In this document: positions 2,643 to 59,764 of the stretch, one piece after another
Layout: every line of letters starts with the position of its first letter
Position numbering within the stretch: the stretch's first letter is position 1
From: Botryllus schlosseri
Taxonomy: Eukaryota
Reading direction: 5' to 3'
Length of the DNA stretch: 64,000 nt
Assembly: GCA_051294905.1 (NCBI GenBank)
Contig: CM119386.1
Coordinates: 20,584,001-20,648,000, forward strand
Notes under the pieces: model-generated
Database searches by the model: none
Told to the model about the DNA's origin: nothing
Seen by the model: the letters and a program-made list of their open reading frames with translations, nothing else
Translations under genes and position numbers: made by a program

Positions 2643-4781
2643 CCGGGAATAAACTCCGCGGGGGCGTTGATGAGACCGTTGGCGAACAGTTCACCTTCGA
2701 TATCGTTGGCAAAGGTATTCTCTAGGTGTTGCGGCAGACCCTTCTTTGCTTTACCTGCAGAATTAGCATCATTAAGTAAGGATCAGTATGACAATACTGA
2801 GTGCGTGAGTGATCCGGTTATGAAGAGAGAATTAGGCTTCGAATCGAGTACTTAACTATCACATATGATGGCGTCGCCACAGTCCCAACGATGCAGAAAG
2901 CTCAAGTATGTACCTTTTATGCGACCTCAAAGAATACAATGGCAGTTCTACATCACATTAAAGATGATTTGGTAAATGACCAACGAATTTTGAAATCGGT
3001 GGATAAAATAATACGTCCAATATCTGCAAAGGTGACAAAAGTGGACAGGCGTCGTGCGTAATCTGAAGGTCGGAGATGTAGTTTGTATATCAAAAGAAAA
3101 TCGTATCCACGGAAACTTGGCGGAGTCGAATCCGTATAATCTCCAGAAAATGGGTTGGTCTGAAAAGCCAGGATACTCGAGGGATGAACAGACTCTATAA
3201 CTATCGGAAAGCCCACATGGAAAGGTCAATACACAAACTCATATCACTAGTTGCAGCAGACTCTCAGTCGGTTAAAACATAACGGTATAGTCGTTCTATT
3301 GAAACGTATTAAGTGTTGCGTTTACTTGGTATGGTGATAGTGGATGAATATTTTGTTAATTATGTATGCTTATCGTACGTATACGTGTCCATAGTAGTAG
3401 TTGGTGGTGTTGTTGTTGTCTGTGGATATGCATGGTGTTTGTCGACTACAATGGTCATTTACACCAGGCCAATATTAATCTTTTTTTTCGTAGCTGCCGA
3501 CTTGTAGCACGGCCCGCTTCTAAGCTTTAATAAGACGCTGCTTACACAGATGTCCATAGTTCCTAATATCCATGTATTTGTGGGTCGATCCCTGACACTG
3601 GGAGCCATTGTTATGTTCATTCGCTTACAAAACCACAATTATTTCGAATTGCATTTTCGTGGAAGCCATGTTATTGCAGGAATCTGCAGGAATATTTAAA
3701 TTTCAATTATAGGCGTCGCGGGATTCGTCTTTTATGTATGTCGATTGGACGTCCCACTTCAATGCAGTCTGGTTTGATGTTGGCGCGATGTTAGTTGCGA
3801 TGTGTCGACAGTCGGCAACAACGACCACGTTCGGGTCGCATGGGAGTAACAGCGACTAAAGTATGATTGCGACTGAAGTATGATTGCGAGAGAGATTTGT
3901 TTGTTTGATATTCATGGTCTGTCGACTACACTGTAAATCTAAAAGGTGGAAAAAATGGTAGGAAAATGGAGAAAGATACTTTCCCTCCATTTATCCACCG
4001 TATCTCCACCAGATATGGAGGAATTTAGAGGGTAGAAAGAGGGAGGAATCAATAGTCTACCATATTTGGTGGAAAACAATTATTGACATGGTGGAAATCA
4101 GAAATGACTGTTCGCAAACTGTCGTATTGCCCAATTAAAACATGACAGTCGATACTGGCTTATAGTTAATAACGTCATCAGACATGAATTTCGAGTCGAG
4201 TGTTGTTTTTTCACTCAATATAAAGTCATAGTCGCATACATTTTGGAATATTGGTAAAATAATTAATATTTCATTTACAAGTGGTTAAGTCAGTAGAGGG
4301 ATTAGTAAATTTGAAAATATCTGAATACTATTAATGGATTGTGATGATTATTTGGAGATCCTGCACGACCGTAGCATATCCAAAACCTTTAACGTATATT
4401 CTTATTGCCAATATCCTCACCAATGAACCGTGACCGGCGGTAATTCAGCATCCGGGACTCTGGCAATTTTGAATGCACGGGGAATCGGGGATATGCGCTC
4501 TCCGTCGTCAGTCAATCTGAGTTAGTCGGTCGACAGAGAAAGATATTTATATTCATTGATTGTGAGTTGATCACAATATGATTATTGTTGATTTTAGTTC
4601 ATAAGTAGCCTAATGTGATTTGCTTAATCGATTTCATATCAAGTACCGGTATCGCTTGTGACTAAAAATCCGGAACTAGTGCACTATACACCAACAATAC
4701 CCGTTCATGGTGATCACTTTATTGACTAAGTATTTTTACACGTCAACCTTTTTCTTTTATAATTCTCTCGAATTTCCATTT

Positions 4782-5154: not shown

Positions 5155-8100
5155 TCAAATCTCGTTATCCTCTGCTGTGTTTCGTATTACCCTTATCGCC
5201 ATCCATTGACTTGTTCCGTTACGCCTCCTCGTGTTCCTCAGATGACTTAGGGTTCTACGCCGACGACATCTTATACAACCAACCCACAACACAATCACCA
5301 GAGCTATCAACCCTGTTACCACCAATATTACAACCACTGGTTCCATGATAGGTATCAGTTTCGCACCTTCCATAATAATCCTATCGATCAAGGATAATTC
5401 TCTTACCTTATATCCACCTTCCATCATCACCAGTTCGTGCAGCCATCGAGTATAGTTGTAGTCAACGAAATCTGTGGTTGTCTTCCCCGCGGTGGTTCTT
5501 GATATTCGGGAATACTCAGGAGCGGGTGTTCCCAAACTTTGGTTTTTCTGCCCAGGCGGTGGTGACGCGTCAGTCATCGTTGACTCCAAGGTAGTATTCA
5601 TCAGTTCGACACTCCTCGGGGACGAGTCGTCTTTGTCGTCTCCTGTTGAATACAAAGCAGTTGTTCCGGTACTTACCTTACGGTTGTGGTCCGGGCTTTG
5701 GTAGTCCGTTCCGATGTCGGTTCCGTCATCATCTCTGGAGTCCTGCAGCGCGTCTGCAGTGGTAATCGGATGCACTCGCGTTGTTGTGGACACCTCACCG
5801 CTGATTTTCGTCGTTCTTTCGGGTAGGTTACGTGGATTGGTTGGCAACTGTTGCTTCCAATGAGTCGAATAGGTTGGTTTGGCATTGTCATTTTCCCCCC
5901 TTTTTTTAGCCATCGATTGCGATCGCCAAGCTTGCACCAGCGTCGTTTTCATTCGCCATCCTAGAGTTAGAGATGGTAGGTGTCTCAGCGCTGTAGTCTT
6001 TGGTACTGTTGTTGTTAGCCGTTCAACGGTCACCAAATGTGCGACGTCGTCCTCCTGATCCCTTGGAATCTTGCTTGTTTCGGTATAGTTAGGTAGAGGG
6101 CTAGTCGGTATATAGGCAGTTCTATTCGCCTCAGGTGCAGTATTCCCGTCTACATCTCGATCGGAGGAAACCTGGTAGGGAACCGTAGTTCCTGCAAAAC
6201 CGGGCCAATCAGTCTCTTCTAACCTTTGGTCGGTTATTTTCGTTGGCGTGGTGGTCTCGTGAGTCATTTCTCTAGTTATTCTCGCCTCTACCGATTTCCT
6301 TTGTTTCGTCAGTTCTTTTCCCCGTTTCGTGATTACCTGGTGCGTGGGCGGGTACCTTGATAACGACATCTCTTCAGTGGCGGTCGTTACTCCTTCCCAA
6401 GTCAGATGCGGCGTCGGGAGACTGTTTGCTGGTTTCTCTTGCTCACTTGGTGTTACCCCATGTCCATTTTCCCAAGCTTCCATGGTCGTACTACCCACCA
6501 TCATCGAAGTAGTTTGCGGAACTTCGGTGGTCCATGTGGTCCTAACGCGATGGTTTCCACGGTCATCATTTGCGGTTAACATCACCGTTCGAGCGGTGTA
6601 TCTCTCCCCCGCATTATTTCTATGGGCATATGGCGTATAGACCAGGGCACCATCACAAAACGTCCCCCGATAGATCCATCGAGGCTGAAATAACTTTTCG
6701 CTCCCCACTTCTGCCTGAATCAGTTTTTGTGAGGCCATATACTTCAGAAGTATCGTATTCATTGATTTTGCTTGTTCTATTAATGTCGGTCGCAGAGTAA
6801 GGTTATACCTCATGGATAGCTCCTCAAGTTGTCCCCGTGAGACGGGTCTTTCTCGCCGCGTTTCTACGTCTTCTCTTATCCGGGCCTTTAGTTGCGACTG
6901 GCATTTATTTATTTCTTCCACGTAGTGTGCCCCAAGGCGGGATAGCCAGTTTCTAATGCCTCCTCGTCCATGTTCTTCGGGTGTCCCTCGAGACGGGGAT
7001 AGTATAAACGTTTCCCACCCTTTTGAAATCAAGCAGGAACTTTGGTTACCCATGGTTGGTAAAAGTATTTCCGTCCGCGTTCGGTTTTCAGGGGCAGCAA
7101 TTTGCATTGCACCTTGCCGAGGGTCCGCAAACACGGCCTGCCCCTCGAAAGGGTCGAATAATACTCTATTGAATAGTAAGGCTGTTTTGAGATCTCCAAC
7201 AGCCGTTGAACAAACTTGTCTATTTTCCTTTAGTCCGCACCGCGATCTATTATGCAAAAGAACTGGGTAAGAGTCATACATTGCCATGCCTGAAGGTTGG
7301 GGTCTTGCCATCGTGCGTAGGAATGCCGTATCGGTTTTTCGTCCGTCGAACATCACATGCCAATGTTCCGAATATGTCTCGTTCCTTGCTTGTAGCCATA
7401 CCAGATTCTCGCTTATCTTCGGCAGAGGAGCTCTGTCGGGCCATTGATTGCTAGAAAAGGTTCTCCGCTTATCCGGCGGGTTCCCAATAATACCGGGATC
7501 GACTTCCTGTATTACAAAATCTAGGGGCAAGAAATTCTCAACCGGTTGCTCCCCCATGAAGTAGCACTCTATACACATCACTCTACTTCGACGTTTTTTA
7601 TGAGCAACACAATGGCTGAATCTATTCTGTCCGATATCCCATCCTATATGACGCCCGAACTGATAGCGACAATTTGCTTCCACTGTTCCATATTGCTCCA
7701 ACAAGTTTATGATCATTGTCTTATATACGGTTAATCGTTGTAATGTCTCGAGGGGTAGAGAATGCAAGGCTCGGGTTTCTACGTACCTCCAGAGATGTAT
7801 CACTCCCAGTCTGCCGTTGCGTCGGTACTTTATTTTTTGAGTATAGTAGTCCGCAGGGTTCAGATCCGGTGATATCCACGACTCAGTCCTTCTGCACACA
7901 CACTCCCGTTCATACGCCCAGGTTTCGTTCCAATACCTGGCGTTTTGGGATCCTATGGATGATATGGGTGCCAGTAATTTGTATAAACTTTGCGGTGCGG
8001 CTTTCAACGGACCAAACGCCGAGTCGTCAACCTGTATCTGATAGTGACGTTGAATGTCCCTTCGAGGCCAGTCCCCTCCTAACATAAAAAGCCGTGACAA

Positions 8101-8298
8101 GGGAACTCTTTGCGGCTTTGGTGGGACGTCGAAAGGTATCCATCCCGTAAAATTAAAGTCGTCGACGGACCCCACGGTCATGGCAGATAAGGGTAGTAGG
8201 TTTTCGCCAGTTTGGGTTTTCACAAAACAAGCCCACAGGATTAACAGCAGCAATCTTTGTAGTCCTTTCCATTTGTACAGGTAGTTAATTATTGGCAT
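5155..8298 (-). CDS. Second envelope glycoprotein (type I membrane; Env-SU-like N-terminal domain, Thr/Ser-rich mucin-like stalk, C-terminal TM), 1047 aa
   Basis: Signal-like N-terminus (RLLLLILWACFV), Cys-containing ectodomain, Thr-rich region, TM VVVILVVTGLIALVIVLWVGCI, basic tail; homologue at 54969-59432. Confidence 0.85.
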   Translation of the reverse strand: MPIINYLYKWKGLQRLLLLILWACFVKTQTGENLLPLSAMTVGSVDDFNFTGWIPFDVPPKPQRVPLSRLFMLGGDWPRRDIQRHYQIQVDDSAFGPLKAAPQSLYKLLAPISSIGSQNARYWNETWAYERECVCRRTESWISPDLNPADYYTQKIKYRRNGRLGVIHLWRYVETRALHSLPLETLQRLTVYKTMIINLLEQYGTVEANCRYQFGRHIGWDIGQNRFSHCVAHKKRRSRVMCIECYFMGEQPVENFLPLDFVIQEVDPGIIGNPPDKRRTFSSNQWPDRAPLPKISENLVWLQARNETYSEHWHVMFDGRKTDTAFLRTMARPQPSGMAMYDSYPVLLHNRSRCGLKENRQVCSTAVGDLKTALLFNRVLFDPFEGQAVFADPRQGAMQIAAPENRTRTEILLPTMGNQSSCLISKGWETFILSPSRGTPEEHGRGGIRNWLSRLGAHYVEEINKCQSQLKARIREDVETRRERPVSRGQLEELSMRYNLTLRPTLIEQAKSMNTILLKYMASQKLIQAEVGSEKLFQPRWIYRGTFCDGALVYTPYAHRNNAGERYTARTVMLTANDDRGNHRVRTTWTTEVPQTTSMMVGSTTMEAWENGHGVTPSEQEKPANSLPTPHLTWEGVTTATEEMSLSRYPPTHQVITKRGKELTKQRKSVEARITREMTHETTTPTKITDQRLEETDWPGFAGTTVPYQVSSDRDVDGNTAPEANRTAYIPTSPLPNYTETSKIPRDQEDDVAHLVTVERLTTTVPKTTALRHLPSLTLGWRMKTTLVQAWRSQSMAKKRGENDNAKPTYSTHWKQQLPTNPRNLPERTTKISGEVSTTTRVHPITTADALQDSRDDDGTDIGTDYQSPDHNRKVSTGTTALYSTGDDKDDSSPRSVELMNTTLESTMTDASPPPGQKNQSLGTPAPEYSRISRTTAGKTTTDFVDYNYTRWLHELVMMEGGYKVRELSLIDRIIMEGAKLIPIMEPVVVILVVTGLIALVIVLWVGCIRCRRRRTLSHLRNTRRRNGTSQWMAIRVIRNTAEDNEI

Positions 8299-8380
8299 AT
8301 TAATTTAACGTGAAAATCTGTAATTCATATAGTTGTGTTTAGTTAAGCATGAGGGTTAAGAGAGCTTCGTCGGAGATTGG

Positions 8381-10966
8381 TTACCGTCGCACTATGGGCC
8401 TGGGCTTTACGGTGTAAGATGGTGTCGACGTTATATACATTGCAAGTTGGGCGTTAGTGTTCCGCCTTTGTACGCTAGATTTTAACTTGGGACAACATAG
8501 GCTGTGGTACCTGACACAACAGAATAAGATAATCACCGCACCCAGTACAAGTCCCAAGGGGAGGAGGATGGATCCGAGGCCCGAGAAAATGCCACTCAGC
8601 CCACTTCCAAATAGACCTCCAATTGCCCCGAGTCCCTTTTGTAGGAGGTTACCGGCACCGTTTCCGACCGATTCTATCAGACTTCCGGCACCGTTCGCCA
8701 TCTCTTCTATCGTTTTGCCAAAGTTCTTCATAAATTCTTCCCCCCCCCCAGCAAACTCGAAGGGGGCTACTGACACATTCTCGTAGCGCCAATCGGAGAT
8801 ATTTACGAACACACTTCGGTTCAGGTCTTCCTTCCATACCTGTATACTGAGATCCACTTCTTCTTGAGCCTGGTTCAGACGAAGCCTGTTGGCTCGGAGT
8901 TTACCACTGATGTCGTTTGTCTCATTCACATACGTATCTTTATAGGCAGATAACTGCTGAGCATGCTCCTGCACCCGCAATGTCCCTTTCCGAATCTGTG
9001 TAAGATAGACCTTACTCGAATCGAATATGGACTTTCCAGTCAAATTAGCCAATTCTTTCATGACCAAGCGGTCGACGGCAAGTTCAGCGTCGCTCACCTC
9101 TGTGAAACTTTGAAACTGAGCGAGGGTGATGGTAGCCTGCCGCAATATCATTTGTCGGTTTTTCTCCATCATCTTTTGCATCCACACCAGTCGTCTGTCC
9201 GTCAGTGATGCCCTCACCTCCATGTCTTCAACCAATCGGTCCAGCTTTTGTTGCTGCGCCGTTTGAATTCGAGAGAGTTCGTTTATCTTTCTTCCCAGCT
9301 CGACTGATCTTTCCGTAGCCTGGATCATTCTATCGTTGATTTGATTACTCAGGTTCTCTGTTTCTTTATGCAGTTGGGAGGATACAGTTGCGACAACAGC
9401 GACGACTGACACAACGGCAAAGATTAGTGCCAGTAGGCCGAAGAGGAATCGTTTACGTCTACGTTTCCTCCCAATCCTCCTATTATTGCGCGCGATATCT
9501 CCTTTTATTTCTATAGGACCTCCCGGAAAACGGGGTCGGTTATGCTCAGGGTCGAAGTGTACCTGATCCCAAAAGGCCGCCTTCAACTGAGGCCCCCCGA
9601 CCGGATCCTGACAGTCGCTACCACTTACCCGTTTCTGACACCTAGGATCATCTGCAACCAAAGAGGGGTGCTTTCGCCAAACAGGCAGTATGTCGTAGGG
9701 TGCGACTGGTCTTTCGGCAGGTCCGTCGAACAAATTATCCCAACCAAGCCCTTGGTCATCTTGACCCTTCCAGTTCGGTAAGGACGCCTGTATCCATCTA
9801 ATCCTTCGAGGAAAATTCGTGGTGGGCAAGTCCCCCCACTTACTCTTGTTCTGAGTCGGCCAAAGATTACACGATGGAGGATGCGCGATGTTGCGTAGGC
9901 CCTTACCGGATAAGGTTGGTGAGTGATGGACGACCTGCCAACGGTGTTCATAGTTTTCCTGGGTGATCAGTCCTGACGTAGCTCGGCAGTTCTGCATAGG
10001 ATGCCACTTACGTTCCCATGCGGATTCCGCACGAATGGTATCTATTTCTTGTATTATTATGTCTGCTTGGCTCGGTTCTAAAGCAGAAATTATCCCTGTG
10101 ATATCACAAAAAACACAGGTGCCGCGTGAACCTGGCCTTGACGACACCAGGCGTTTGTCTGACGTGCGAGTCTTCCAGTCGTAGGTTATTGAATATGTTC
10201 CGGCCCAAAGCACGTTACTCGGCCAACAATGCGCAATGCTCGAGCTACTGGCGTTATATTTATTCCATCGATCAACCCGAGTCCAGTTCCAGGTATCTTT
10301 TGTCATGCGCTCTGTCCTGCAAGTCGATCTCACCGCTGAGAACCCCGCGAATGCTCGTAACATGATCAACTTGAATTTGGTCATTGCCATTAAGGTATCG
10401 TTCACATGAGACCACTCGTCCACTTCAGCCCCAGCCTTCCATTTCTGCCTAGACGTTTCCCAGGTCTCGTCCCAAAACCACCGTATCCTGACCCCATGCC
10501 CTATTGGGCGTACGAACACAGTTTCTTGGTCAAGAACGGCAAAGGTTAGGTTCGGCGAAATTTCGCTTAGTTTTCGTTGGCATAGGCAGGTTCGTTCAAA
10601 ATCCCGTACATTCGACCAATATCGCCCTCGCGGGAACGCCATTTGCTGCAATGACACCCGTTCGGCCACCACGTAACCGAAAGATTCACTATGAAAGAGT
10701 GTTGGTCGCCTGTACACGTGACGATTCCCTGTCTTATTGAAAGCGCTCATTAGGTCGTAGGTTTCCCATTGCGTATCATTCAGCCGAACCCAGTCGTCAG
10801 GTAGTGAGCCGTTGAATTCACCCAGGGTACCCTGAGTAAAGGTTCGGGCCCTGTTTGCTACAGTATCTCCGGATCTTGGCACGAAGTCCGCCGCCTCAGA
10901 CAACAAGCAATCAGATGTGCAACTGAAACCAATAATGACAGGCAGAATATAAATAGCGTAGTCCAT
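8381..10966 (-). CDS. env: Envelope fusion glycoprotein, class I-like (SU / furin site / fusion peptide / heptad repeats / TM), ~861 aa
   Basis: True ATG at 10966 (MDYAIYIL aligns with MDHAAYIL of element C; the track start at 10993 is TTG). Signal peptide, N-glycan sequons, RKRRRKR|FLFGLLALIFAVV, long heptad region, Gly-rich membrane-proximal segment, TM, Cys-rich tail. Confidence 0.9.
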   Translation of the reverse strand: MDYAIYILPVIIGFSCTSDCLLSEAADFVPRSGDTVANRARTFTQGTLGEFNGSLPDDWVRLNDTQWETYDLMSAFNKTGNRHVYRRPTLFHSESFGYVVAERVSLQQMAFPRGRYWSNVRDFERTCLCQRKLSEISPNLTFAVLDQETVFVRPIGHGVRIRWFWDETWETSRQKWKAGAEVDEWSHVNDTLMAMTKFKLIMLRAFAGFSAVRSTCRTERMTKDTWNWTRVDRWNKYNASSSSIAHCWPSNVLWAGTYSITYDWKTRTSDKRLVSSRPGSRGTCVFCDITGIISALEPSQADIIIQEIDTIRAESAWERKWHPMQNCRATSGLITQENYEHRWQVVHHSPTLSGKGLRNIAHPPSCNLWPTQNKSKWGDLPTTNFPRRIRWIQASLPNWKGQDDQGLGWDNLFDGPAERPVAPYDILPVWRKHPSLVADDPRCQKRVSGSDCQDPVGGPQLKAAFWDQVHFDPEHNRPRFPGGPIEIKGDIARNNRRIGRKRRRKRFLFGLLALIFAVVSVVAVVATVSSQLHKETENLSNQINDRMIQATERSVELGRKINELSRIQTAQQQKLDRLVEDMEVRASLTDRRLVWMQKMMEKNRQMILRQATITLAQFQSFTEVSDAELAVDRLVMKELANLTGKSIFDSSKVYLTQIRKGTLRVQEHAQQLSAYKDTYVNETNDISGKLRANRLRLNQAQEEVDLSIQVWKEDLNRSVFVNISDWRYENVSVAPFEFAGGGEEFMKNFGKTIEEMANGAGSLIESVGNGAGNLLQKGLGAIGGLFGSGLSGIFSGLGSILLPLGLVLGAVIILFCCVRYHSLCCPKLKSSVQRRNTNAQLAMYITSTPSYTVKPRPIVRR

Positions 10967-11112
10967 TGAGGTGGTATAGGCGTCGGTCCCCAATGCATAG
11001 GCTTACTATTTTATATTGAATATGATTTAATTATTGTCTGCAAAAATAGAAACATACATTGTCCGGTTTGTGGCTAACTTCCTTTCTTTATTGCGAAAGG
11101 CTTCACTGGGCT

Positions 11113-12074
11113 TTACTGAGGATTACCTTGTGTGTCAGGAATCTGATCACTAGGGTCGTCATTATTATACCGCGGGTCCAGAGATATCGTTTTCAACAGA
11201 GCCCCAAACCTTTTTTTACGGGGGTATCTTCTCTTCCAAAGCCACTCCCCCACATAATCGGCTAGTAAATGACGTGCTAGACCCCTCGATCTGTGTAAAT
11301 GATATTTCAGCGAGCTCCAGCAAGCCTCTAAATCATTGGTATGAACGCCCTGGGCAGATTTAAACGTGGTGGCGTGGTCAACTGATCCATGTTTATAGCC
11401 CTGCCCCCAACTTTCAATGCCCTTATACGATGGATAGCCATCTGTCAGAATGGTTGAACCTCTGGCTACATTCTTAATTATAAGTCTTTTCAGAACGTCC
11501 GCTGTTCGGTCAGATGTGATCTCCACAAACATGTCACCGGTACCTCGGTCCAGGCCACCGAAAGCCCAGACAGCCTTCACTGCTTGTTGACCGCTACCAG
11601 CTGCCCGTTTCCGCTTGGCCAAGTGGGTTTCGTCCAGGATTACAGTTCGGCCAACCCCGCCTAATTTCCGTTTACGTCTTTGTATGTAAGCAGAGCACAT
11701 CTTGCGCAGTTGTCCAGACCATTCTACCGTCGTACGTGCGCTGATCTCGGCCTCATGGGCCATTTGAATTTGTAGAGAGTCTTGGGCCCAAAAATAACTT
11801 AATACTAGCAGCTGGGGCAATCCAAGTTTGCTCTTTGAAAAAAATGAGTACTTGCGGATAGTAGCAGTGGTCCTACAAGATGAGCACCTCCATCTCCATC
11901 CGTCCGAAATTCTCTCGGTAGTCCGTTCTTCCTTCATCCATCTTGAGCATTCTCTGCAAATCATTTGTTTTCTCAGTAGACCCCGGCTTCTTAAAAAAGG
12001 GATGCAATCGCGTGTATGGGGTAAGGCTCCCATTTCCACCAATCGCAGCACATTGTAATCCTCGACGAAGGAGT
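11113..12074 (-). CDS. Merlin/IS1595 (ISXO2-like) DDE transposase, probably expressed from a spliced mRNA
   Basis: Zinc ribbon CREC...WRWRCSSC; catalytic motifs VILDETH, ILTDGYPSY, VDH, HTNDLEACWSSLK. ORF-track start 12099 is TTG inside a polypyrimidine tract ending CAG at 12077-12075. Confidence 0.9.
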
Positions 12075-12161
12075 CTGAAAAGTAAATAAAAAAGTACAAG
12101 TTCCTTTAACGATCGATCACTCCCCAGCAGTTAAATCTCGACGGCAGCGTCACCCTGCATC

Positions 12162-15100
12162 CTAGGCCAGGTTCTCCATCAGTATATACCCTGACGGTAT
12201 TGGCCCTTCGCACAGTATTACCTCGTGATTATGCGACTGTAAGAGTCGTAGACCTATCCTTCTGAGGTCGTTCGCCCTCATTCTCAGAACCGTTCTACGC
12301 CCACGTGCCTTTGTTGTGTTAATCTTACTCAAATGGATGAACCGTCGGTTCATTCTGTGTAGTTGGGTATCAATGATTTGACGGGCACCTTCGTCCGTCG
12401 TTGTGTGATACAGCATGTCATCGCCTAGGTACTCTTCGTATGGGGGTGGCATCCCTTTGGTGTGCCCGTGCGCTGCAGCCAGGCCTTCACCGGACATCAC
12501 TGCCCTGTCGCAATTGGCCATGATATCCTCAATTTCAGTTATCCCGAGGTCTTGTCGCAACTTGTCTTTGATTATTCCGCGAACTTCTTCCCAGGGGTGG
12601 TATCCATCGACAGAGTTTGCGCAATACTCGTGCCGACAGTGGAACATCAGGGTTCGCTGTATTTTCTCTTGTTGAAATTCTTTGTGTCCCGGGAGGGTGG
12701 CCCAGACATGAGGGTCATCATCTCTAGCAGCCATTTCCATCCAATAGGATCGGGACAATCCATCTGAAGTAAACACTTGGAACGTGCTCAAATGGATTAC
12801 CTCTTTTATCTGGAATCCGGAGAGATGATTTAGCCACCTTTGAATCAATGGCTTTGGGCTCGGGTTTTTTGCCTCATCTGTCATTCTTTTCAGGAGTCCA
12901 AAAACTCCCATGTTGTCAGTAATTATAGTGAAGGGTAAGGCGCGCAGCATCGACTGCCATTTCTCCACTGAATCCTTCAGGGCTTTAAGCTCTTTGGTGC
13001 ATGGGTCATAGGCTTTCGCCGTCGGAGTTACCCACTTTTGACTGTAGTAAGCGATCGGATACACCTCTTTGAAAGGGGGTTTTTCCCCCACATCCGTTTG
13101 AAAAATTACGGAGCCAAACCCTACATCTGATGCGTCAGTTTCCACAAAAATGGGAAGTCCTGGATCCAGATGATACAGTACCTTGGCACTGTCGAGTGCA
13201 GCTTGAGCTGTTTTGTAGTCCTGCAATAATTCTTCGGTCCAAAGCACCGGTGTCATTTTACCTCGAGTCGCTGGGACTTTTCCCGTTAGCGCATCAAATT
13301 TTGCCAACTTCAAGCTTAACTCTGGGATGTGCTCCGAGATGTAGCGCAGAGCGCCAATCCATCCTCGTAATTCGTATATATTTCGGGGTGGCGAAAGCTC
13401 CCGCAGAGCCCTTATTCTCTCAGGCTGGACCTCGATTTCTTTTCCCGTCAAGGTCGCTCCTAGGAGATTTGCCCTCCGTTTTCCAATAAAGCATTTATTG
13501 ATGCTGAGCGTCAATTTCATTTTAGCAAGCTGTTCAAATACCAACCGTAGGAGAAGCAAATGGTCGTCTACCGTTTTTGTGCTAAGGAAAATGTCGTCTA
13601 TGTAGGCCTCCATAGGCGTCGCATTCTCCTCATCCGATCGGCCATTTTGCTTCATGCGTTGGCGATACTTTTCCGTGATGGGTTTCACCGCGCATTCTTG
13701 CATGTTAGCGCTCCAAAGGGCAACTGCGGTCTTCAATCCCATCACAATCTTGCGCCATCTTACGTGCATTCCTTTGATGGCTATTCCCACATATTGCTTG
13801 GATCTTTCCGTGATATCCATGTGGAAATAGGCTTTCTTCAAATCCAGCAGGGAGAGCACTTCTCTTCCCTGGGCGAGTTGTTTTACATCTGGTACTAAGG
13901 GTGGAGGGACTTCGATTGACTTTATAGCAGCGTTCAGGGGCTGGAGATTCTGTACGACTCTCCATGATTGCTTCCACCCGTCCTCCTGCTTCTGTCTTTC
14001 ATTCATTTTTTGTGGGACGACAAAGATGGCCAGTTTCCATTCGGCAAATCCTTGCTCAATTATTCCCAGGTCCAAGAAGTTGTCCACTGCTTCTTTTAAC
14101 GCCTTCGCCTGGCCCTCCCCTTTCAGATTATAAGGTCCAGAAACAAAAGGCTTAGTCGAGGGATCCCTGAGTTCTATGTCACACTTATACTTCATGGCTT
14201 GAGGGGCTCGTAAGTGGCCACGCAGGTCCTCTAGTTCAGCTGCGAAAGGCTCATAGACGGCTTTCCAAACTTCGTCGGCAATGATGGTATTTTCCGGGGT
14301 CGTTAGATCAGGAGGTTTGTATGGAAGTTTCGCTAGTGCTACCGATTGTGCACAGAGACTTTCGAGATCCGTCTTAACGCTAAGACTGGTACCTTGTTGT
14401 AAGGTGTACGTGGTAACAGGGCCAATTATCGGCCGATGCGAATCACGTGAAAAACGGGGTTTTGGTGTTGGTGGAGAGGGGGCGAGGTTCTTCGTTGTCA
14501 GCGGGGATTCCCTACCTATCCAATCTGACCTCTGAACTCGGTGCGTGCCCACACCTACCGTCACGCCGACGGACTCAATCTCCGCCGGGGGCCCTGTTTC
14601 TGGGGAGACGTGCATCTTAAAATCCCCAGACTCCTTGTCGGACGCGCCTGGACCTACGTCCGGTTGACCGACAATAGCTGCTTCGTTTGAACCTTTTGGG
14701 AAGTTACTCATAACTGTGGCTGTCGTCCTGCATCTTTGGGCCGAATTATTACAGTTATTCGGGCAAGTGCATCCACGAGAGCTTTCAGGACCAGTTTTCT
14801 CGTGCAGGTCCTTATTTACGTCAGCCGGGATTCCGCGCTCGACGTCTTCATTAATAGTGCCAGCAGGGATTCCTGTCTCGACACTAGGGGTTTCCCGTAG
14901 GTTTCTCTCGACGTTAGTGGTATTTACCAACCCGTCGTCCGCGCCAGTGGCGATTGCCATCTCGACACTTGCGTCAGCGGCGACGGCCGGCAATAATGAC
15001 CGGCGCGCCGACTCGACGCTTATCTGATTTGCAGCTTCCATCAACCCATCGTCGGTAGCAGCGTTGCAAGGACTGTTTCCGACTCTGGTTCCATCCCGTC

Positions 15101-15632
15101 GATCGCACGAGATCTCGTCATGTAGTGTTACTAAAGACAACTCTTCGTTTGCATTAGACGGAGTTTTGAATTCAGTCGTTATGTTCGGTAATTGTTGTAC
15201 CTGATCAATCCATTTTAACCCAATAATATTGAGAGGGACTCCTTTCCCGGTTGCAAATGGAACCGGTAGTCCATCGAAATCAATTATTACCAAGGAGTCA
15301 ACGTGGGAAGAGCCCCCTATGCCGCGTAATTTCATGTCTAGGGGTTGTCGCTCCTCCCAGCTTCGTGGGTATTTGGTCTTAACAACACTTTTCATTATTA
15401 AATTGGGGATGCTTCCCGTGTCGGCCAAGAATTTAGTTTCCGTTGTGGTGTCAACCAAATACAAGAGCCGACCGCCGAATAATTCCGTAAAGTCTGGCTG
15501 TAGTGGGTTATCCGGTGTATCAAGAAATGTAAATAGGGGTAGAGAAGCATTATGTACAGTTTTTGCGTGTTGGGGTAATAAGTTATCTGGGAGCTGATTT
15601 ACCGGATCAATCAGCACCCCCAGTCGTTTTTT
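12162..15632 (-). CDS. pol: Pol: aspartic protease, spacer, reverse transcriptase, RNase H, C-terminal Tpt1/KptA-like domain; no integrase
   Basis: FLADTGS protease motif; RT WRVVQNLQPLN, LLDLKKAYF, YIDD; Ty3/gypsy-type RNase H VETDASDVG...KELKAL...TDN...DGLSR; final ~167 aa match Tpt1 motifs; no HHCC or DD35E integrase. Entered by -1 frameshift from gag. Confidence 0.93.
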   Translation of the reverse strand, partial: KKRLGVLIDPVNQLPDNLLPQHAKTVHNASLPLFTFLDTPDNPLQPDFTELFGGRLLYLVDTTTETKFLADTGSIPNLIMKSVVKTKYPRSWEERQPLDMKLRGIGGSSHVDSLVIIDFDGLPVPFATGKGVPLNIIGLKWIDQVQQLPNITTEFKTPSNANEELSLVTLHDEISCDRRDGTRVGNSPCNAATDDGLMEAANQISVESARRSLLPAVAADASVEMAIATGADDGLVNTTNVERNLRETPSVETGIPAGTINEDVERGIPADVNKDLHEKTGPESSRGCTCPNNCNNSAQRCRTTATVMSNFPKGSNEAAIVGQPDVGPGASDKESGDFKMHVSPETGPPAEIESVGVTVGVGTHRVQRSDWIGRESPLTTKNLAPSPPTPKPRFSRDSHRPIIGPVTTYTLQQGTSLSVKTDLESLCAQSVALAKLPYKPPDLTTPENTIIADEVWKAVYEPFAAELEDLRGHLRAPQAMKYKCDIELRDPSTKPFVSGPYNLKGEGQAKALKEAVDNFLDLGIIEQGFAEWKLAIFVVPQKMNERQKQEDGWKQSWRVVQNLQPLNAAIKSIEVPPPLVPDVKQLAQGREVLSLLDLKKAYFHMDITERSKQYVGIAIKGMHVRWRKIVMGLKTAVALWSANMQECAVKPITEKYRQRMKQNGRSDEENATPMEAYIDDIFLSTKTVDDHLLLLRLVFEQLAKMKLTLSINKCFIGKRRANLLGATLTGKEIEVQPERIRALRELSPPRNIYELRGWIGALRYISEHIPELSLKLAKFDALTGKVPATRGKMTPVLWTEELLQDYKTAQAALDSAKVLYHLDPGLPIFVETDASDVGFGSVIFQTDVGEKPPFKEVYPIAYYSQKWVTPTAKAYDPCTKELKALKDSVEKWQSMLRALPFTIITDNMGVFGLLKRMTDEAKNPSPKPLIQRWLNHLSGFQIKEVIHLSTFQVFTSDGLSRSYWMEMAARDDDPHVWATLPGHKEFQQEKIQRTLMFHCRHEYCANSVDGYHPWEEVRGIIKDKLRQDLGITEIEDIMANCDRAVMSGEGLAAAHGHTKGMPPPYEEYLGDDMLYHTTTDEGARQIIDTQLHRMNRRFIHLSKINTTKARGRRTVLRMRANDLRRIGLRLLQSHNHEVILCEGPIPSGYILMENLA

Positions 15633-18484
15633 GAGAGTCTCAAGCCTTGTTCTAGTTCCTCATCCGTCCAATGCGAGGCGTCATAGCGACGTGGAGGACG
15701 GCGATATAGCGGTTCCGTCCAGGCCACTTGGCTATTGCCCTGGTTCGGTTGTTCAGGTGGGCCCTGAGGACCCCACTGATCCCTATCATGCCAGTGGGTT
15801 CTATCTCTATTTTTTGGCCTAGAGTCATAATAGGCCTCGCACAAGGCAGTTCTCTGTGTCAGAGAGGGAGAACCTTGGGTGGCAAGGTATCGGTCGAGGT
15901 CCGGGACCGTCAATATGTTATTCCTTGCAAGGAAAGGCTCCCAGTTGCGTTTTGTGGACTCCTTAACGCGTGGGGGTACCGGTCGTATTCGTTTGCGAAC
16001 TACCCAACCTAAGGTATCATCCTTGGCAATCACCTCCTCATTTAGCCAAAGCACGAATTTTGCCACGCAATTACGGGATTGGTGTCCCGGGGCCTTACAA
16101 TAATAACATACGGATAAGGACTGCCCCTGAGGGGGGTTCAGATACAAGCCTAGAGGGGCGAAAATGTTGGGGTTCCCAAGAAAATTATACCTCTCACCTT
16201 GGCTCTCCGCGATGCGGAGGGCTTCCTGACTGCTAGACGGCGTGATTTCCTGGCTGTCCCCGCCGATTCCAGAGTCCTGCGTATTCATCACCCGAGGTCT
16301 CCGGTTCGAAGTACTTGGCCCCTGACTTGTTTGAGGAGATCTGGAGTTCCGTGCTGGTGGAACGCTCGGTCCATTCGATGCGTTGCGCCCATTTTGTGTT
16401 CGGGAAGGTTTGGCCCTGGTAGCCGGGCCCTGTCTGCCAAATCCATTTCCACTCATTACATTGGTAGGAAAACGGTTGGTCTTTGCGCCGCGAGGAGGGC
16501 CACGTCGTGGCTGCGAAGCTTGCCCGACGCCGACGGGCTGCCGTGGCGACATATTCCCCGTCGGTCTGGGTGGTGTCCCCCCGATCATGTGCAGAGGTTG
16601 TTGGGGTGAGGGTGGTTGCACCATCGGAAGTGGTGGTGTAGTCGGTGGAGGAGGGGTGTTTATTCGTTCATCTCCACCCCCGTGAGTAGGGTAACTGTGC
16701 ATCATGGGTCCTGCAGGCTGAACATTATATATGTGTACAGGCGGTAGGGGCGACATTGCTTCACGCGTCTTTCTGGCCTCCCGAGTGGTGGGTCGTACCT
16801 CTTGTTCATCCAAGAACTCAGAATTCCAGTACAGCTGCAAATCCTCTGCCACCTCTTGCCAGGACCTGCTATCCCATCCCCGCATCAGCAGTCTAAGTGC
16901 TTCTGGTAATCGTTGTCTTAGGTTGCGGAAAAGTCGCAGCCCATCCGGATTCTCGTTGATTTCCGCCTCCATATCTATCTCTAGTTGCTTTAGGGCGCTA
17001 TTCAACAGCGGAAGAGGTTCGTCTTCCCACTGATAATTCCTCCGGAAGTCGTTGATGACTTTTTCATTGTTAACCAAGCCTTGCGGGTTGGATAGCGACA
17101 ATGATTTCATGACCGAAACCCATTTTGCATTTCCCGAGTTGGTGTTGAAGAAATTCCCTAGCTGATTAGCTTGTTTGAGGCGACCCGCACTTCTCAACTT
17201 CTTCTGCATGGCATTAGCCAGGATGATATCAGTATCAGTGCCGCCCTCACCGTGTCGTATACGCCTCATCGTATTAGCCATCCACTTTAGAAGTGGCATG
17301 TCCCCAGGGTCCATCATTAGCTGTAGCATCTCCTTTTCGGACTGGAACCTTTCGGGCGTAGTCAACACCGGGTTTACGGCATCATTCCGTGGTTGTTCTC
17401 GCGGAAGTCTCGATCTACCTTCGCTTTCTCTTGGGGTAGATGTGTATCGAGGTAATCTGAGGTATTCAGCGATGTCCGAAATATCCTCTGCGGGTTCGCT
17501 TGGGTTGGGCCGACCAGAGTCCCGTTGAAGCGTCCGCGTGGTTTCCCGAATGGCCTCCCGTGCCTCCGCTATTTGTCTACCCAATCTGTCCAATTGGGCG
17601 TCAGTATCTTCCCCCGAGTCTTCAGGCTCTTCGCTTTCGCCTTGTCGGTAGTTCGTTCTCCCTTCCTGAAAGGTAACGCGCCTTGTTGGAGTGCTGGCCG
17701 CACCTTGTGTCCTGGTCCGGGTTCCTTCGGCTGCTCGTTGATCGTCGAGCCATGCGCCGAGCCGTTCTCGAGCGTGTGCATAGTCCTCGTCTGAATCTGG
17801 TCCAGTGTCTGTTCCGGTTCCACTCAGCTGAAATAGACTGGGTGTATCGACTAGGCTCCCCCTTCGTCTTTCGGGGCGTGTCCCATTCCAAACTGGAAAG
17901 CATGGAGTCGTTTTTGGATGAGAATCTGATGGCGACTTCGGCTTGGAACCTGGCAACGTAGGGTAGACTGTCGTTACGGTATGGCAATCCAGGCCCTTTT
18001 GGACTGTAAACGTGGGCAGTGGCGCTGTTGCCCTGGACGATTTCCCAACGGGCGGATCATACGCCGGGGGAGGTGCTGTAGCCATTACGGACAGGGGAGA
18101 AGGTGGTGGTGGTTTACTTTCAACCACTTGGGCATGGGCTTTGCCCAGTTCAAATTCCGATTTCAGAATCTCACTGAGGACTTCAGTGGAGACTTTCCCG
18201 CTAACCTTCGAAGTTGCATCGCATACTGCTTTGAGGTCGGCTTGAGCTCGCCTGACTTCTTTCTTGGCTTTTTCCAGCCCCTTCATTGTCTCGGGCAGAG
18301 TTGATTTGACTTCTTTTAGTACCTTCGTTTGATCAGCCACGTCTTTTGCCAACTGTCTTTCTTGTTGTCTGACGCCTTCGTGGCGTTTTTGCGTGGCTTT
18401 CAGTAGCTTGATGCCCTGCTCGAGCTCGCCTGCCGCCTTTGACGACTTATTCTTCTTTTTAAATAATTTTAGCATTTTTCGCAT
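15611..18484 (-). CDS. gag: Gag polyprotein, 957 aa
   Basis: Upstream of and overlapping pol; basic N-terminus, coiled coil, PPAY and YPTL late-domain-like motifs, single CCHC knuckle CYYCKAPGHQSRNC. Confidence 0.9.
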   Translation of the reverse strand: MRKMLKLFKKKNKSSKAAGELEQGIKLLKATQKRHEGVRQQERQLAKDVADQTKVLKEVKSTLPETMKGLEKAKKEVRRAQADLKAVCDATSKVSGKVSTEVLSEILKSEFELGKAHAQVVESKPPPPSPLSVMATAPPPAYDPPVGKSSRATAPLPTFTVQKGLDCHTVTTVYPTLPGSKPKSPSDSHPKTTPCFPVWNGTRPERRRGSLVDTPSLFQLSGTGTDTGPDSDEDYAHARERLGAWLDDQRAAEGTRTRTQGAASTPTRRVTFQEGRTNYRQGESEEPEDSGEDTDAQLDRLGRQIAEAREAIRETTRTLQRDSGRPNPSEPAEDISDIAEYLRLPRYTSTPRESEGRSRLPREQPRNDAVNPVLTTPERFQSEKEMLQLMMDPGDMPLLKWMANTMRRIRHGEGGTDTDIILANAMQKKLRSAGRLKQANQLGNFFNTNSGNAKWVSVMKSLSLSNPQGLVNNEKVINDFRRNYQWEDEPLPLLNSALKQLEIDMEAEINENPDGLRLFRNLRQRLPEALRLLMRGWDSRSWQEVAEDLQLYWNSEFLDEQEVRPTTREARKTREAMSPLPPVHIYNVQPAGPMMHSYPTHGGGDERINTPPPPTTPPLPMVQPPSPQQPLHMIGGTPPRPTGNMSPRQPVGVGQASQPRRGPPRGAKTNRFPTNVMSGNGFGRQGPATRAKPSRTQNGRNASNGPSVPPARNSRSPQTSQGPSTSNRRPRVMNTQDSGIGGDSQEITPSSSQEALRIAESQGERYNFLGNPNIFAPLGLYLNPPQGQSLSVCYYCKAPGHQSRNCVAKFVLWLNEEVIAKDDTLGWVVRKRIRPVPPRVKESTKRNWEPFLARNNILTVPDLDRYLATQGSPSLTQRTALCEAYYDSRPKNRDRTHWHDRDQWGPQGPPEQPNQGNSQVAWTEPLYRRPPRRYDASHWTDEELEQGLRLSKNDWGC
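15626..15632 (-). promoter_or_regulatory. -1 ribosomal frameshift heptamer A AAA AAC
   Basis: X XXY YYZ heptamer in the gag frame five codons before the gag stop; pol is in the -1 frame; identical heptamer at 50408-50414 in element B. Confidence 0.85.
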
Positions 18485-18528
18485 AGTTTATGTAACTTTT
18501 GTTTGTCTGTATTTTGGTCCCGTACCTT

Positions 18529-18893: not shown

Positions 18894-18911
18894 ATCTCGC
18901 CGATGGCTCCA
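18894..18911 (-). promoter_or_regulatory. Putative tRNA primer-binding site (tRNA-Thr-like)
   Basis: Minus-strand TGG-A-GCCATCG-GCGAG-AT(T): geometry of CCA, U73 discriminator, 7-nt acceptor strand, 5-nt T-stem and T-loop start; lies between TATA region and first ORF. Confidence 0.65.
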
Positions 18912-19128: not shown

Positions 19129-19305
19129 CGTGTAATTAAGCCTTAATACAACCAAATACTCCAATAAATATCATGCAGACAGAATGAGGTATCTAAGCAA
19201 AACTCGGTTAAATTGGCACATAGAATATCCATCAATTATAACACAAGATAAAGCTTAAACCTATTCATATTCATGCACGATTAAATGTATTTTAAATACT
19301 CCAAG

Positions 19306-24798: not shown

Positions 24799-26178
24799 AG
24801 CATATGTCAGACTATTCTTCGAAAGTATAGCGGGCAGACTGAGTACTTTTCTCCTCATTGTAATCGGAACGATTACGACTGCTCATGGCTCTTTCGCATT
24901 GTTTATGTCACATGGAGTCAATGAGGCATGACCACAAGCCTTCAGATCTGATGGGGTCAGTCTGACCCCAGCTCGCCATTTGTGTTATGGTGCCATGCCT
25001 TGAGGAGGAATCTTTGAAATAGGCAGACAGTTGGGTTCAAAAGAAGAAGATTCCTCATTATAACGTCTTGTAGGAGGTTATTATACAGCGGGTCAGCGAA
25101 GTTGGTAACACAAGAAGCATATAAACTGATGGGGTCATTTTGACCCCACCTGAGCAATCACGTAATAGTAAACCCTTAGTCGTTTAGGGTTAAGTGAGAA
25201 TTGCGTGGTTCCCCATATACTTAGGGCGGATAAATTCAAGTAATACGTCGGCCAGGCGATAGAGAGAAATGAACTCAATCTATTCAATGAAATACACAAT
25301 TAACCAACCTTTTAATCGAATCAATGCAAGTCCTCATCAATTATGCTTTGCAAAACAAGCACTTATTATATCAATCAACTATATTCTGCAAAACGAGGAC
25401 TCGCCATCACAACTAACTCTAAACCGCACGTGAAGTTCACTGGATCGGTAACATCAGCATGGGTACCACTTATCTTAGTGTGTACAGCACATACGACCGC
25501 AGATAGAGCGACTTGACCGACCCTGGACGCTGGATGATTTTCGAAATTGACCCACCAATTATATTTTGCGTCACGTGATAGTTAATTTATGTCTCCGCCT
25601 GGCCAATAGAACCAGTTCAACTCATTCTTTTGCGAATTAGCCGAGCCAAGCCAAAATATACGACGAACACGCGCCCTTTTCCAAGATGTCACAACTCAAG
25701 GTTTAGTAGGCCGGCTACCACCACTTTGCTTCCTTTTACCCATGAAGGGAGCTATCTAAGCAGTCTAGCATTTAATATTAGCTGGCGCCATTTTGGTTCA
25801 CTAGTGATATCTTCGTACCGAGGCCAATCGATAATTGTTACAATAACGGCATATCGCCATATTTAAAATAACGCGCATCTTTTTTCCGCATAGGAAATTC
25901 GGCCGATGGCCAGCGGTTGACGGCGAACTCGGTTAACGGCGAACTTGGGATTCAAACTCTGGTTATTCGGTCGTATATCGGTGTCATCCCTGTCTGAAAT
26001 TGGGCCACAGACTCAGAATGTAGCCGCGCAGGACCCATTTCAAACAATGAACCGAGATTTCATAGGGTTTTAGCCAGTTCGTAGTGCAACTTATCGCATC
26101 GCATGGAGTATTTGGTTGTATTAAGATTTAAAGTAATCTAGGCTATAATCTAGGCTATATACCCATCCAAGAAACAAA

Positions 26179-27009
26179 ATGACAAAGCCCGGAACAAACG
26201 AAGATGACATCTTGCTGAGACTGAAAAAGATGGAGAGTAAACTGGATAATACGCTCGCTGAAGTCAAAGTGTTGAAGGAAGAAAACAAGGAACTGCGCAA
26301 CATCATCTCAGAACTGCAGACTACAGCTGAAGATATCAAAAAATCTGGTTCTGCCGTAGAAGAACTGCGAGAAGAGATAGAATCTTGCAAGACTGGTATG
26401 GAATTCATGAATGCAGAATTTGAGGACACCAAAAAAAATCTAGAACGCGCCTCACAAGAATCCATGGTCAACGAGCACGACAAATTTGAGTCAACTATGA
26501 GATTCCTGAACAAAAAAATATCTGACCTAGAACGCACCAACGACAACCTGGAGCAGCAATCTCGAAACAACAACCTGGAATTTCATGGTGTTCCCCACTC
26601 CGAAAAAGAGAATCTGCCTGAAACTATCATGAAAATAGCTAACGCCTTGAAAGCTGAGATTACTGCGCCACAGATTGTGCAGTGTTATAGAGTGCGCTTC
26701 AGAAATAAGGACAAAACAGGACCCGTTATAGCCAAATTCTCTTCTGAGCAACCAAAAAAAGAATTCCTCAAAGTGAAAAAGGCCAAAAGGGATATCAAGG
26801 ACTTTGGTGTAGAAGGAATGAAACAACTCTTCCTAAACGAAAATTTAACAAATTACAGAAGTGATGTTTTCTTTGAAGCGCGAGCTGCGAAACAAAAAAA
26901 AAGCTTCAAATACCTCTGGACTGCAAATGGAAATATCTATATGAAAAAGAATGATGGTGCACCCAGAATCCACATTGAGTCAAAGGATGACCTCGATAAA
27001 CTCAAATAG
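26179..27009 (+). CDS. LINE ORF1 (coiled coil, RRM-like and C-terminal domain), 276 aa
   Basis: Long N-terminal heptads, then SRNNNLEFHGVP, GPVIAKF, LFLNENLT, YLWTANGNIYMKK typical of CR1/L2-group ORF1. Confidence 0.85.
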   Translation: MTKPGTNEDDILLRLKKMESKLDNTLAEVKVLKEENKELRNIISELQTTAEDIKKSGSAVEELREEIESCKTGMEFMNAEFEDTKKNLERASQESMVNEHDKFESTMRFLNKKISDLERTNDNLEQQSRNNNLEFHGVPHSEKENLPETIMKIANALKAEITAPQIVQCYRVRFRNKDKTGPVIAKFSSEQPKKEFLKVKKAKRDIKDFGVEGMKQLFLNENLTNYRSDVFFEARAAKQKKSFKYLWTANGNIYMKKNDGAPRIHIESKDDLDKLK

Positions 27010-27054
27010 AAACTGCTATACTGCTCTCACTGCAAACGCAACCCACACTAAAAA

Positions 27055-45848: not shown

Positions 45849-47190
45849 AGTGACGGGCCAGATTACTTTGGTACGTTCTAAACTCGGCTGTAAGTCGTTA
45901 GGTTAACTTTACTGCATCTCTTTGTTGCCGTATGGCCACGATTATGAAATTTGACTCTTTGTAACTTCCTGAAATCGCATCGCGCATCAAGCTTCGAATA
46001 TTCACTCTATCGGGCCATATTTAAAATGTTGCCGCAGTTCGCTGAATATAGCCGCGGCGTCGAATTCATATTTCGATTCAATCAAAATGGCCGACGAATT
46101 ATTCTTCTGTCAATTTATGGTTGTTTCTAGCAATTATCCTTGTTACACGTACACCACATTAATACCCTCAAGTTCAGATTACTCTACACTACAATTCTAC
46201 CTTTTTCTTTACTCTTACACGTCAAATTTTGGTGGTATTAAGTTCATTTGTTCCGTATAAGTTCAAATAAACTTCAATAAAATATATGCCTCGTCATAAC
46301 ACACTTCTTTTACAACCATTCTCTCGAATTTCATACAGTGTTCACCGTGTAACAGAGGGTATTAAATGCACTTGTACCAAAAATACAATGAACTTGTCAT
46401 AAGCAGTTACCAGTAACCTACCTATGAGAGATGAGAATGATGCATCTGATGACCCGATATTGTTTTTCTGCTGATATCTTGCTTGGTGGGAAGGTAATTC
46501 AAGTAAGCCAACTGGTGATTATAATGAAAGGAATTAGGTGGAAAGAGTACATTTTCATATTCATGCATGACATAGATAGAGCTATTGTTGGGTACCGGTA
46601 TTCAAACTGGTTCTGTATTTAGTTTTACCATTATGCAGTAGCTGCATATTTATAATTTGGATTTTCATTGTTTGAATGAAAGGAACTCTTCTGATATCTT
46701 TCCGGCGTCACATTTTTTGTAAATGTGAGAATTGACTATGAATATATTCGGGACTAATGCACGATGCAACGTAACTCGTAGAAATGTAAGGCCAAGGACA
46801 TAGGAGTATGTGCATTTTCCGCCCGCATATCTGTTGTCATGGTGCACACTATAGCCTATGACGACAGTGTCATACAAATGATCGCATGATCGAAGCACCA
46901 CATGATTCATATTTCCGATTGTTAATTACAGGCCTTATGGGTATTCTTTCCGGTGATCTTCCCGCTAGTTTAGAGAAACGATCCACCGAATATTAGCCTT
47001 TTGGGATTACGTCAATTTTCATTCTTCAAATCTGAAATATGTTGCTAACAGATAACTATATTATTACACCCGCCTTTAAACCAATTAAACTGTAGCCTGG
47101 TCTATAATGACAAAAACCCACGGCTTTGTCTAGCGATTATTCACTTTATTAATTCTCAGACCGTTTTATACTATGTAATGTCACCTTATT

Positions 47191-50100: not shown

Positions 50101-50414
50101 CCTTGTAAATTCATACGCAACGAACACCGCCTTCGCCAACTATTGGGATAAGCTAATCTCGCCATTGACGACATCATCAAATTTGGCACGCTTCCTGTAT
50201 CTGCTAAAAAATTTACATTAGTATTTATATCGACTAGGTACATCAATTCACCCCCAAAAAGCTTTGCGAAATTACATTCATCAGAATCTTTAATTTCCCC
50301 AAACATACTAAATAACGGTAATGACAAATTATTTATTATTCTCATAGTTCTATGTGGTAATAGTTCGTCTGCACACTGGTTCAAAAAATGACCCAGTGTA
50401 GCTAACCGTTTTTT
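47191..50414 (-). pseudogene. pol: Element B pol (PR-RT-RH-Tpt1-like) with a 1-nt frameshift near 49022-49030
   Basis: Collinear with element A Pol: FLADTGS, WRVVQNLQPLN, YIDD, VETDASDVG, HCRH...LFHIT...MNRRYIHF; WTQ(aa)WRVV lacks one base relative to WKQSWRVV. Confidence 0.9.
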
Positions 50415-52176: not shown

Positions 52177-52295
52177 TCGCGACCCATGACCTATCATAAA
52201 GAGACGTTTTGTTTGTGTTTTTCAGACAATAAACCGAACACTTTCGTAAATAATACCTAGCTTATGCAGTGGGCTGAGCCTCCTATTCCGCCCCA

Positions 52296-59740: not shown

Positions 59741-59764
59741 CGGCTACAGAAAAGACATAGAGTC

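Follow-up and report, generated by a model that had tools for sequence, protein, structure and literature searches.

A Tpt1/KptA-like domain at the end of Pol in a Merlin-bounded retroelement with env-like genes from Botryllus schlosseri

Introduction

Caulimoviridae prime reverse transcription with a tRNA from a single leader, and DIRS elements are tyrosine-recombinase retroelements in which the integration enzyme has been swapped. Teratorn, a fusion of piggyBac and a herpesvirus, is a DNA virus that integrates via a captured DNA transposase. The element described here has a DDE transposase instead of the recombinase of DIRS and, unlike Teratorn, is reverse-transcribing. We know of no Tpt1 in DIRS or Teratorn, and to our knowledge animals and many prokaryotes keep Tpt1/TRPT1 without a known need for its classic job in tRNA splicing.

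The element shares the gag-pol order, the CCHC knuckle and a primer-binding site before gag with Metaviridae (Ty3/Gypsy), Troyka, Odin and lokiretroviruses, but these have a Pol integrase, LTRs and 3–6-bp target duplications, whereas the element has neither integrase nor LTRs and is flanked by 8-bp duplications (PMC12440569). Its Pol has the protease-RT-RNase H arrangement without integrase that is seen in Caulimoviridae (PMC12440569), from which it differs in its animal host, env-like genes, Tpt1, transposase, inverted ends and size of 25–40 kb. Merlin transposons are defined by GG ends and 8–9-bp duplications, with imperfect inverted ends allowed, and the element has in common with Merlin/IS1595 a DDE_Tnp_IS1595 domain, GG ends and 8-bp duplications (PMC8101967). 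However, it adds a full gag-pol-env set and a tRNA primer site, and the term "reverse transcriptase" does not occur in PMC8101967.

KptA has been reported within polyproteins of a Beihai picorna-like virus and a Botrylloides leachii nidovirus, as well as in sawfly nucleopolyhedroviruses, Bodo saltans virus and phages, and across 21,191 viral proteomes surveyed it was absent or rare in eukaryotic viruses (PMC9503650). The domain described here likewise sits in an animal virus-like polyprotein, but the available portion of that report names no reverse-transcribing virus or retroelement (PMC9503650). In the literature outside subscription journals and Repbase, we found neither a Tpt1-bearing retroelement nor a gag-pol-env element bounded by Merlin ends.

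Results

We analysed a window of 64 kb from Botryllus schlosseri, to which all unprefixed coordinates refer. Element A spans 46378 to 4672 in the order leader, gag, pol-Tpt1, IS1595/Merlin transposase and two env-like genes, all on the minus strand. The gag frame (958 aa, 15611..18487), which has a CCHC zinc knuckle, overlaps a pol frame of 1165 aa (12162..15659) with protease (LADTGS), RT (YIDD; PF00078), RNase H (D-E-D-D motifs; PF17917/PF17919) and terminal Tpt1 (PF01885), and a candidate −1 slippery heptamer in the overlap (15626-15632) suggests a frameshift. Scans with Pfam detected no integrase in this Pol, in the other element frames or in outside Pols. Next comes a Merlin/IS1595-type DDE transposase with candidate D-D-E motifs (11113..12105; PF12762, E 3.4e-13), and DDE_Tnp_IS1595 was found in all four transposases scanned (E 3.4e-13 to 3e-17). 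As judged from sequence, env-like glycoprotein 1 (8381..11002) has a basic cleavage-like site, a hydrophobic segment and a C-terminal membrane anchor, with no significant Pfam match, and env-like glycoprotein 2 (5155..8304) has a paralogous ectodomain and a Thr-rich stalk. Gag and env profiles gave no significant match in the PDB, and no capsid fold was found. A pyrimidine tract and AG (12075-12164, minus strand) precede the transposase frame, and in four of six A-type copies this frame starts directly after the pol stop, in the same frame.

The right inverted end of element A (4672..4691, minus strand) is a sharp end common to all five copies compared, and a hexamer resembling a poly(A) signal lies about 45 nt inward of it. 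The left end (46235..46378, minus strand) has its outer end at 46378 and an inner repeat at 46254, and the 8-mers flanking the element match at seven of eight positions. Element A has been invaded by a LINE (26101..30248, plus strand) and by a second, RNase H-bearing LINE insert (~44593-45849). Element B (47191..50949, minus strand) consists of the 3′ part of gag and a pol that is broken by a shift of frame near 49014-49038. Inserted in the gag of element B is element C, which is 24.7 kb long, lies on the plus strand and extends beyond the window (50950 to 75611, of which 50950..64000 fall inside). Element C has a perfect 8-bp target duplication and the order transposase (51157-52176, plus strand), env, env, accessory frames, leader, gag, pol-Tpt1.

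The carrier measures 25–40 kb and has Merlin-type inverted ends and 8-bp target duplications. Among 13 end pairs, 10 show perfect 8-bp duplications (two of these have common flanks and may be one event), one matches at 7/8 (element A), one is mismatched and one is indeterminate; seven further copies with no located end stand outside this count. The inverted repeats are short and imperfect, and the ends start with GG. No LTR pair or terminal direct repeat occurs in the 64-kb window, and the carrier is not an LTR element. Troyka, with CG..CG LTR ends, a 3-bp duplication, an integrase and no env, was considered as an identity for the element and is ruled out by its ends and 8-bp duplications. Right ends are far commoner than full copies, and many end pairs only 3–33 kb apart represent internally deleted derivatives.

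That Pol ends in a Tpt1/KptA-like domain, and that element B has the same motifs, was the original prediction, and both points hold. The motifs on which it was based fall within the C-terminal ~168 aa of the pol frame, where the domain occupies 12165..12668 (minus strand). Against the Pfam profile PTS_2-RNA (PF01885), copy A scores slightly below the 26-bit cut-off (24.3 bits, E 3.7e-5) and copy B above it (29.1 bits, E 1.3e-6), the copy B domain lying at 47194-47712 (minus strand), inside the 47191-49038 part of the element, with its seven core residues kept. The cut-off is also passed by five of six outside element proteins (P0034, P0037, P0038, P0045 and P0048, with P0041 below) and by an outside Pol, P0019 (29.9 bits). 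In a phmmer search of the PDB, the best 10 of 15 matches are RNA 2′-phosphotransferases, and with a profile of 16 domain sequences all 12 matches are Tpt1/KptA chains (best E 6.4e-16).

The predicted structure agrees. An alignment-based AlphaFold model of the domain (pLDDT 87.6) overlays on Thermococcus kodakarensis KptA/Tpt1 structures with TM 0.82–0.83, and the match to KptA (Z 18.6, rmsd 2.0, 163 residues aligned; next families Z ≤8.2) covers both the RNA lobe and the NAD lobe in the model. The structures compared were T. kodakarensis KptA (9ld6/9ldc), Pyrococcus horikoshii 8tfi, 6e3a, human 7yw3 and yeast 7yw4, and the two-lobed fold common to these cellular enzymes is matched at Z 16–19; our literature search turned up no article describing those from T. 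kodakarensis. A single-sequence fold (pLDDT 53.7) matched nothing and was discarded as a poor model. With both profile and structural matches significant, a Tpt1/KptA domain is confirmed in the position of Pol where an integrase would be expected. It differs from cellular Tpt1/KptA/TRPT1 in its fusion to RT-RNase H, its ~21% identity and its placement in a clade of its own (SH-aLRT 100).

The Arg-His-Arg-Arg tetrad is needed by the yeast, E. coli and Runella enzymes (PMC6097658), and NAD+ is bound by the His-Thr of HGT together with a His-His-Val triad (PMC10415124). The tetrad, the His-x-Thr and residues of the His-His-Val triad are features that the element domain shares with its cellular counterparts. 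In element A Pol (minus strand), the relevant residues are Arg1009/His1010 (12630-12635), Arg1052 in CDR (12504-12506), His-x-Thr (12399-12407), Arg1105 (12345-12347) and His1109 (12333-12335). Of the RT-intact Pols, 18 of 18 have all seven core residues, the tetrad among them, and so do copy B and, of the proteins found in other assemblies, 11 of 12; this bears out the expected retention of the tetrad. The second Arg, earlier regarded as uncertain, is Arg1052; its counterpart in T. kodakarensis KptA is the Arg of KGR, and none of the 38 aligned rows departs from it. The correspondence of the tetrad is one of sequence alignment plus full-length fold match, not of side-chain positions. There are also departures from the cellular pattern. 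The Gly of HGT is replaced in all 38 rows, although its His and Thr are kept, as are the second His and the Val of the triad. Moving to KxR, 17 of 18 intact Pols lack the Lys but retain the Arg, and the SGxR loop is missing. Moreover, the domain has extra conserved His and Cys residues, with an invariant His-x-Arg-His-x-x-Cys...His cluster found only in the element clade.

This cluster and the loss of the HGT Gly would fit a non-catalytic nucleic-acid clamp, in which the winged-helix lobe helps RT to grip primer or template or aids strand transfer. Such a role is quite improbable, as lineages whose RTs are merely 40–46% identical have Arg1105 in common, along with the His-Thr and His-His-Val residues that bind NAD. 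From fold and residues, the domain may instead be predicted to be a catalytically competent Tpt1/KptA enzyme. Because the HGT Gly and the KxR Lys are replaced, its activity could differ from that of cellular enzymes. The same tetrad serves the removal of 2′-phosphates, and these residues therefore cannot decide between capping and removal.

The Tpt1 domain is under purifying selection in RT-intact copies. Of 19 pairs, which are not independent, 14 allowed dS to be computed, and in these the dN/dS of the domain is 0.11–0.36, compared with 0.02–0.09 for RT and 0.30–0.89 for the linker. Hence it is scarcely credible that the domain is a neutral passenger or a chance match; copy A taken alone does score below the curated Pfam cut-off, but this reading is refuted by the conservation pattern and dN/dS together with the profile and Z values above. 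Between the main subfamilies, however, the domain is only 53–60% identical, whereas RT/RNase H is 90–93% identical, and in some pairs its dS exceeds that of RT, consistent with exchange. Both observations would suit a conflict effector that ADP-ribosylates host RNAs or defense intermediates or consumes NAD+, and that resides in Pol solely for delivery. Adding to this, IAP and LRR genes occur in large copies, and mRNA with an ADPr cap is not translated (PMC9458441). One such copy, of 40 kb (L083: 4324-5373, 8338-9852, 6051-7001), encodes an LRR protein, a three-BIR RING (IAP-like) protein and a second transposase ~42% identical to the first. An effector is nevertheless improbable, since no RT-intact pair has a dN/dS near 1, and since it should have stayed useful in the RT-deleted copies described next, where it decays.

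In one subfamily, most of RT and RNase H has been deleted in frame, and Gag, protease and a Tpt1 remnant are kept. None of seven such copies retains all seven core residues, and the losses vary by copy. For protease, the Gag core and the RT stub, pooled dN/dS in these copies is 0.14, 0.10 and 0.75, respectively; for Tpt1 it is 0.47 pooled (median 0.83), versus 0.20–0.28 in three intact groups. As relatives of one another, the seven copies count as a single natural experiment. The joint decay of the domain and RT favors a function tied to reverse transcription, and the sequence pattern indicates that the domain probably serves the copying step.

The 495-Mb assembly yielded 140 domain matches among 146 candidates, which are not copy numbers, with about 50 in frames longer than 1000 aa. 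Searching outward with RT as the query recovered five outside proteins at 40–52% identity, the nearest Gypsy-type matches being at 25–27%; PF01885 is on record in four of the five, and the motifs are visible in the fifth. A word-indexed search with the Tpt1 region (0 of 437 candidates) was discarded as too insensitive because the RT query had found these relatives. In a profile search of 1.84 billion representatives, element-type domains rank first. One of these, annotated in the tunicate Styela clava as a stand-alone 2′-phosphotransferase, begins with the post-RNase H linker. P0019, a Pol belonging to the same clade, has protease, RT, RNase H, Tpt1 and ExoIII/APE (PF03372, E 1.9e-18) in one frame. 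Viral contigs gave 46 pattern matches, none of them confirmed, and metagenomes gave 3 of 146, of which two are real relatives whose contigs are too short for any neighbors to be visible. ESM Atlas matches all fall below 0.9 and serve as leads only, the first cluster being mollusc-rich. Searched against the PDB, the element Pol profile matches CaMV RT best (8r0s, 143.8 bits; Ty3, 120), an order of scores that does not stand for a phylogeny.

Element domains form one clade in both donor trees (SH 96 with 94 rows, SH-aLRT 100 with 33 rows), whose cellular rows were picked by the element's own profile. The phylogeny proposed for finding the donor thus succeeds in uniting the element domains but does not single out a donor lineage: a sister relation to the host's TRPT1-like genes is not rejected (AU test, p 0.257). 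Contig C3 of the host carries two such frames, both intronless, and C14 has an exon-like match. In the PDB ranking, archaeal and bacterial KptA stand above animal TRPT1 for the element profile.

A 24-nt copy of the chordate spliced leader lies at 19142..19165 (minus strand). This 24-mer is identical to the "Chordata 1" consensus for spliced leaders (PMC3795323, Table 1); the available portions of PMC3691228, PMC4006837 and PMC4893630 do not give the leader sequence. It is common to seven of eight element stretches, including the most divergent, at 400–680 nt before gag, with the eighth deleted there, and the genomic RNA probably begins with this 24-mer. Downstream of it, a primer-binding site (18894..18911, minus strand) is complementary at 18 of 18 positions to host tRNA-Thr(CGT) plus CCA, and in most copies the 18-mer sits 227–243 nt downstream of the spliced leader. 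Three other stretches have an 18-mer with 18/18 complementarity to tRNA-Thr(AGT). In this comparison, which covered tRNA-Thr 18-mers, five near-identical A-type copies have one site type and two the other, a mixture that recombination, or copying of the site anew from the primer, would produce.

Judging from these signals, the element has just one R-U5-primer-site leader, and this lies internally. RNA started at this leader would cover the upstream genes only on a circular or tandem template, and the single internal leader thus suggests a circular intermediate. An RNA step, which the cut-and-paste movement of Merlin lacks, is suggested by the conserved RT together with the primer site and the spliced leader. 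From spliced leader to primer site, the leader folds no better than shuffles (z 0.72), and no conserved polypurine tract was identified. Upstream of leaders are tandem repeats with units of 57 bp (two self-complementary stems; 19299-19521), 77 bp (21254-21614) and 63 bp (60434-61028); Rfam matched no family over the window, hence we make no ribozyme call for these repeats. A poly(A)-like hexamer lies 478–518 nt before the leader in five of six stretches listed. The plus-strand LINE inserted in element A begins with most of the same spliced leader, from 26104.

Two divergent, transposase-less copies are permuted (pol, env, leader region, gag) with differing break points. This arrangement fits circles, although one copy has perfect inverted duplications and is possibly an assembly artefact. 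A head-to-tail end junction has no match in the assembly. Of the RNA runs, X22 has no reads on the element, and X24, a single 3′-biased run read to 3%, gave 80 reads, none at 99% or above and most at 4500-5467. These reads come from sibling copies, are strand-biased and mostly cover the right end, with hardly any over pol (depth at most 0.37), and in this run pol-Tpt1 expression was not detected. The 80 reads include no splice or circle joint, nor a joint between pol and transposase, for whose expression splicing or readthrough could be the route.

Discussion

In the mechanism that we propose, Tpt1 would be the last module of a Gag-Pol made through the −1 frameshift at 15626-15632, and would be packaged as part of Gag-Pol with RT, the tRNA primer and the genomic RNA. 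Within the particle it would use NAD+ on phosphate ends produced by tRNA-primed reverse transcription, adding ADP-ribosyl caps to the 5′-monophosphate ends of RNase H products, primer remnants and nicked or gapped cDNA. Until the DNA arrives in the nucleus, such caps would protect the ends against 5′ exonucleases and against being ligated too early. The cDNA would most likely close into a circle, as in caulimoviruses, given the single internal leader and the lack of an LTR pair, and the Merlin-type transposase, whose footprint is evident, would act on the inverted ends to insert it.

We rank capping of phosphate ends during reverse transcription first among the possible functions, because RNase H and primer removal create 5′-phosphate ends of the kind that TRPT1s cap, although from sequence, model and analogy we would grant it a probability not quite reaching one half. 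TRPT1 caps 5′-phosphate ssDNA and ssRNA, capped RNA resists XRN1, and RNA ligated through the ADPr cap gives an APE1-cleavable site (PMC10415124, PMC9458441). The ExoIII/APE-family domain behind Tpt1 in P0019, another end-processing enzyme, is in keeping with this role. In mouse TRPT1, moreover, the KxR Lys is linked to ssRNA preference and the Arg to ssDNA (PMC10415124), and it is the ssRNA-linked Lys that is lost in 17 of 18 intact Pols and the ssDNA-linked Arg that is kept. Arguing against capping, the host already has TRPT1-like genes of its own, and no circle or end junction was found.

Alternatively, the domain might act as a canonical 2′-phosphotransferase that strips 2′-phosphates from the tRNA primer or from genomic RNA that host nucleases have cleaved and that has been repaired, letting RT prime or read through. 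Ligation by RTCB is not known to leave a 2′-phosphate. RTCB is the ligase for animal tRNAs (PMC9458441), the host has TRPT1-like genes, and no 2H phosphoesterase or RNA ligase was found among the element frames scanned, most accessory frames matching no family; all this makes healing of RNA the less favored, rather unlikely reading. It draws support from the invariance of the full tetrad, including the step-2 Arg (Arg64 in Runella, PMC6097658), and from Iyer et al., who propose this function for KptA in the picorna-like virus and ascidian nidovirus polyproteins (PMC9503650), and decay upon RT loss fits it equally.

Taken together with end capping or healing by a Pol-borne Tpt1 in the particle, the element could stand for a group of enveloped viruses, reverse-transcribing, undescribed and of family rank, that infect tunicates and perhaps further marine animals. 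Members would use the host spliced leader as a terminal repeat re-copied each cycle, prime from a tRNA, form a cDNA circle and insert it with a captured Merlin transposase instead of an integrase. We put this composite forward with more doubt than conviction. A retroelement lineage in which integrase and LTRs have been exchanged for a DNA transposase is absent from the classifications summarised in the available portion of PMC12440569, and with the domain, the toolkit of reverse transcription would gain a step that depends on NAD. An enzyme kept only alongside RT also offers defined substrates, namely the primer, RNase H products and cDNA ends, with which a role in 5′-end ADP-ribosylation can be probed.

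Two further KptA-like sequences deserve mention. One is P0050, a protein of 503 aa that ends in a KptA falling outside the element clade and that may come from an RNA-virus polyprotein. The other is a 235-aa frame after pol in the transposase-less lineage (L057:250-954, minus strand), which has a weak match to the NAD lobe of Tpt1 in a single-sequence search (E 0.0014) and is possibly a degenerate second copy of the domain.
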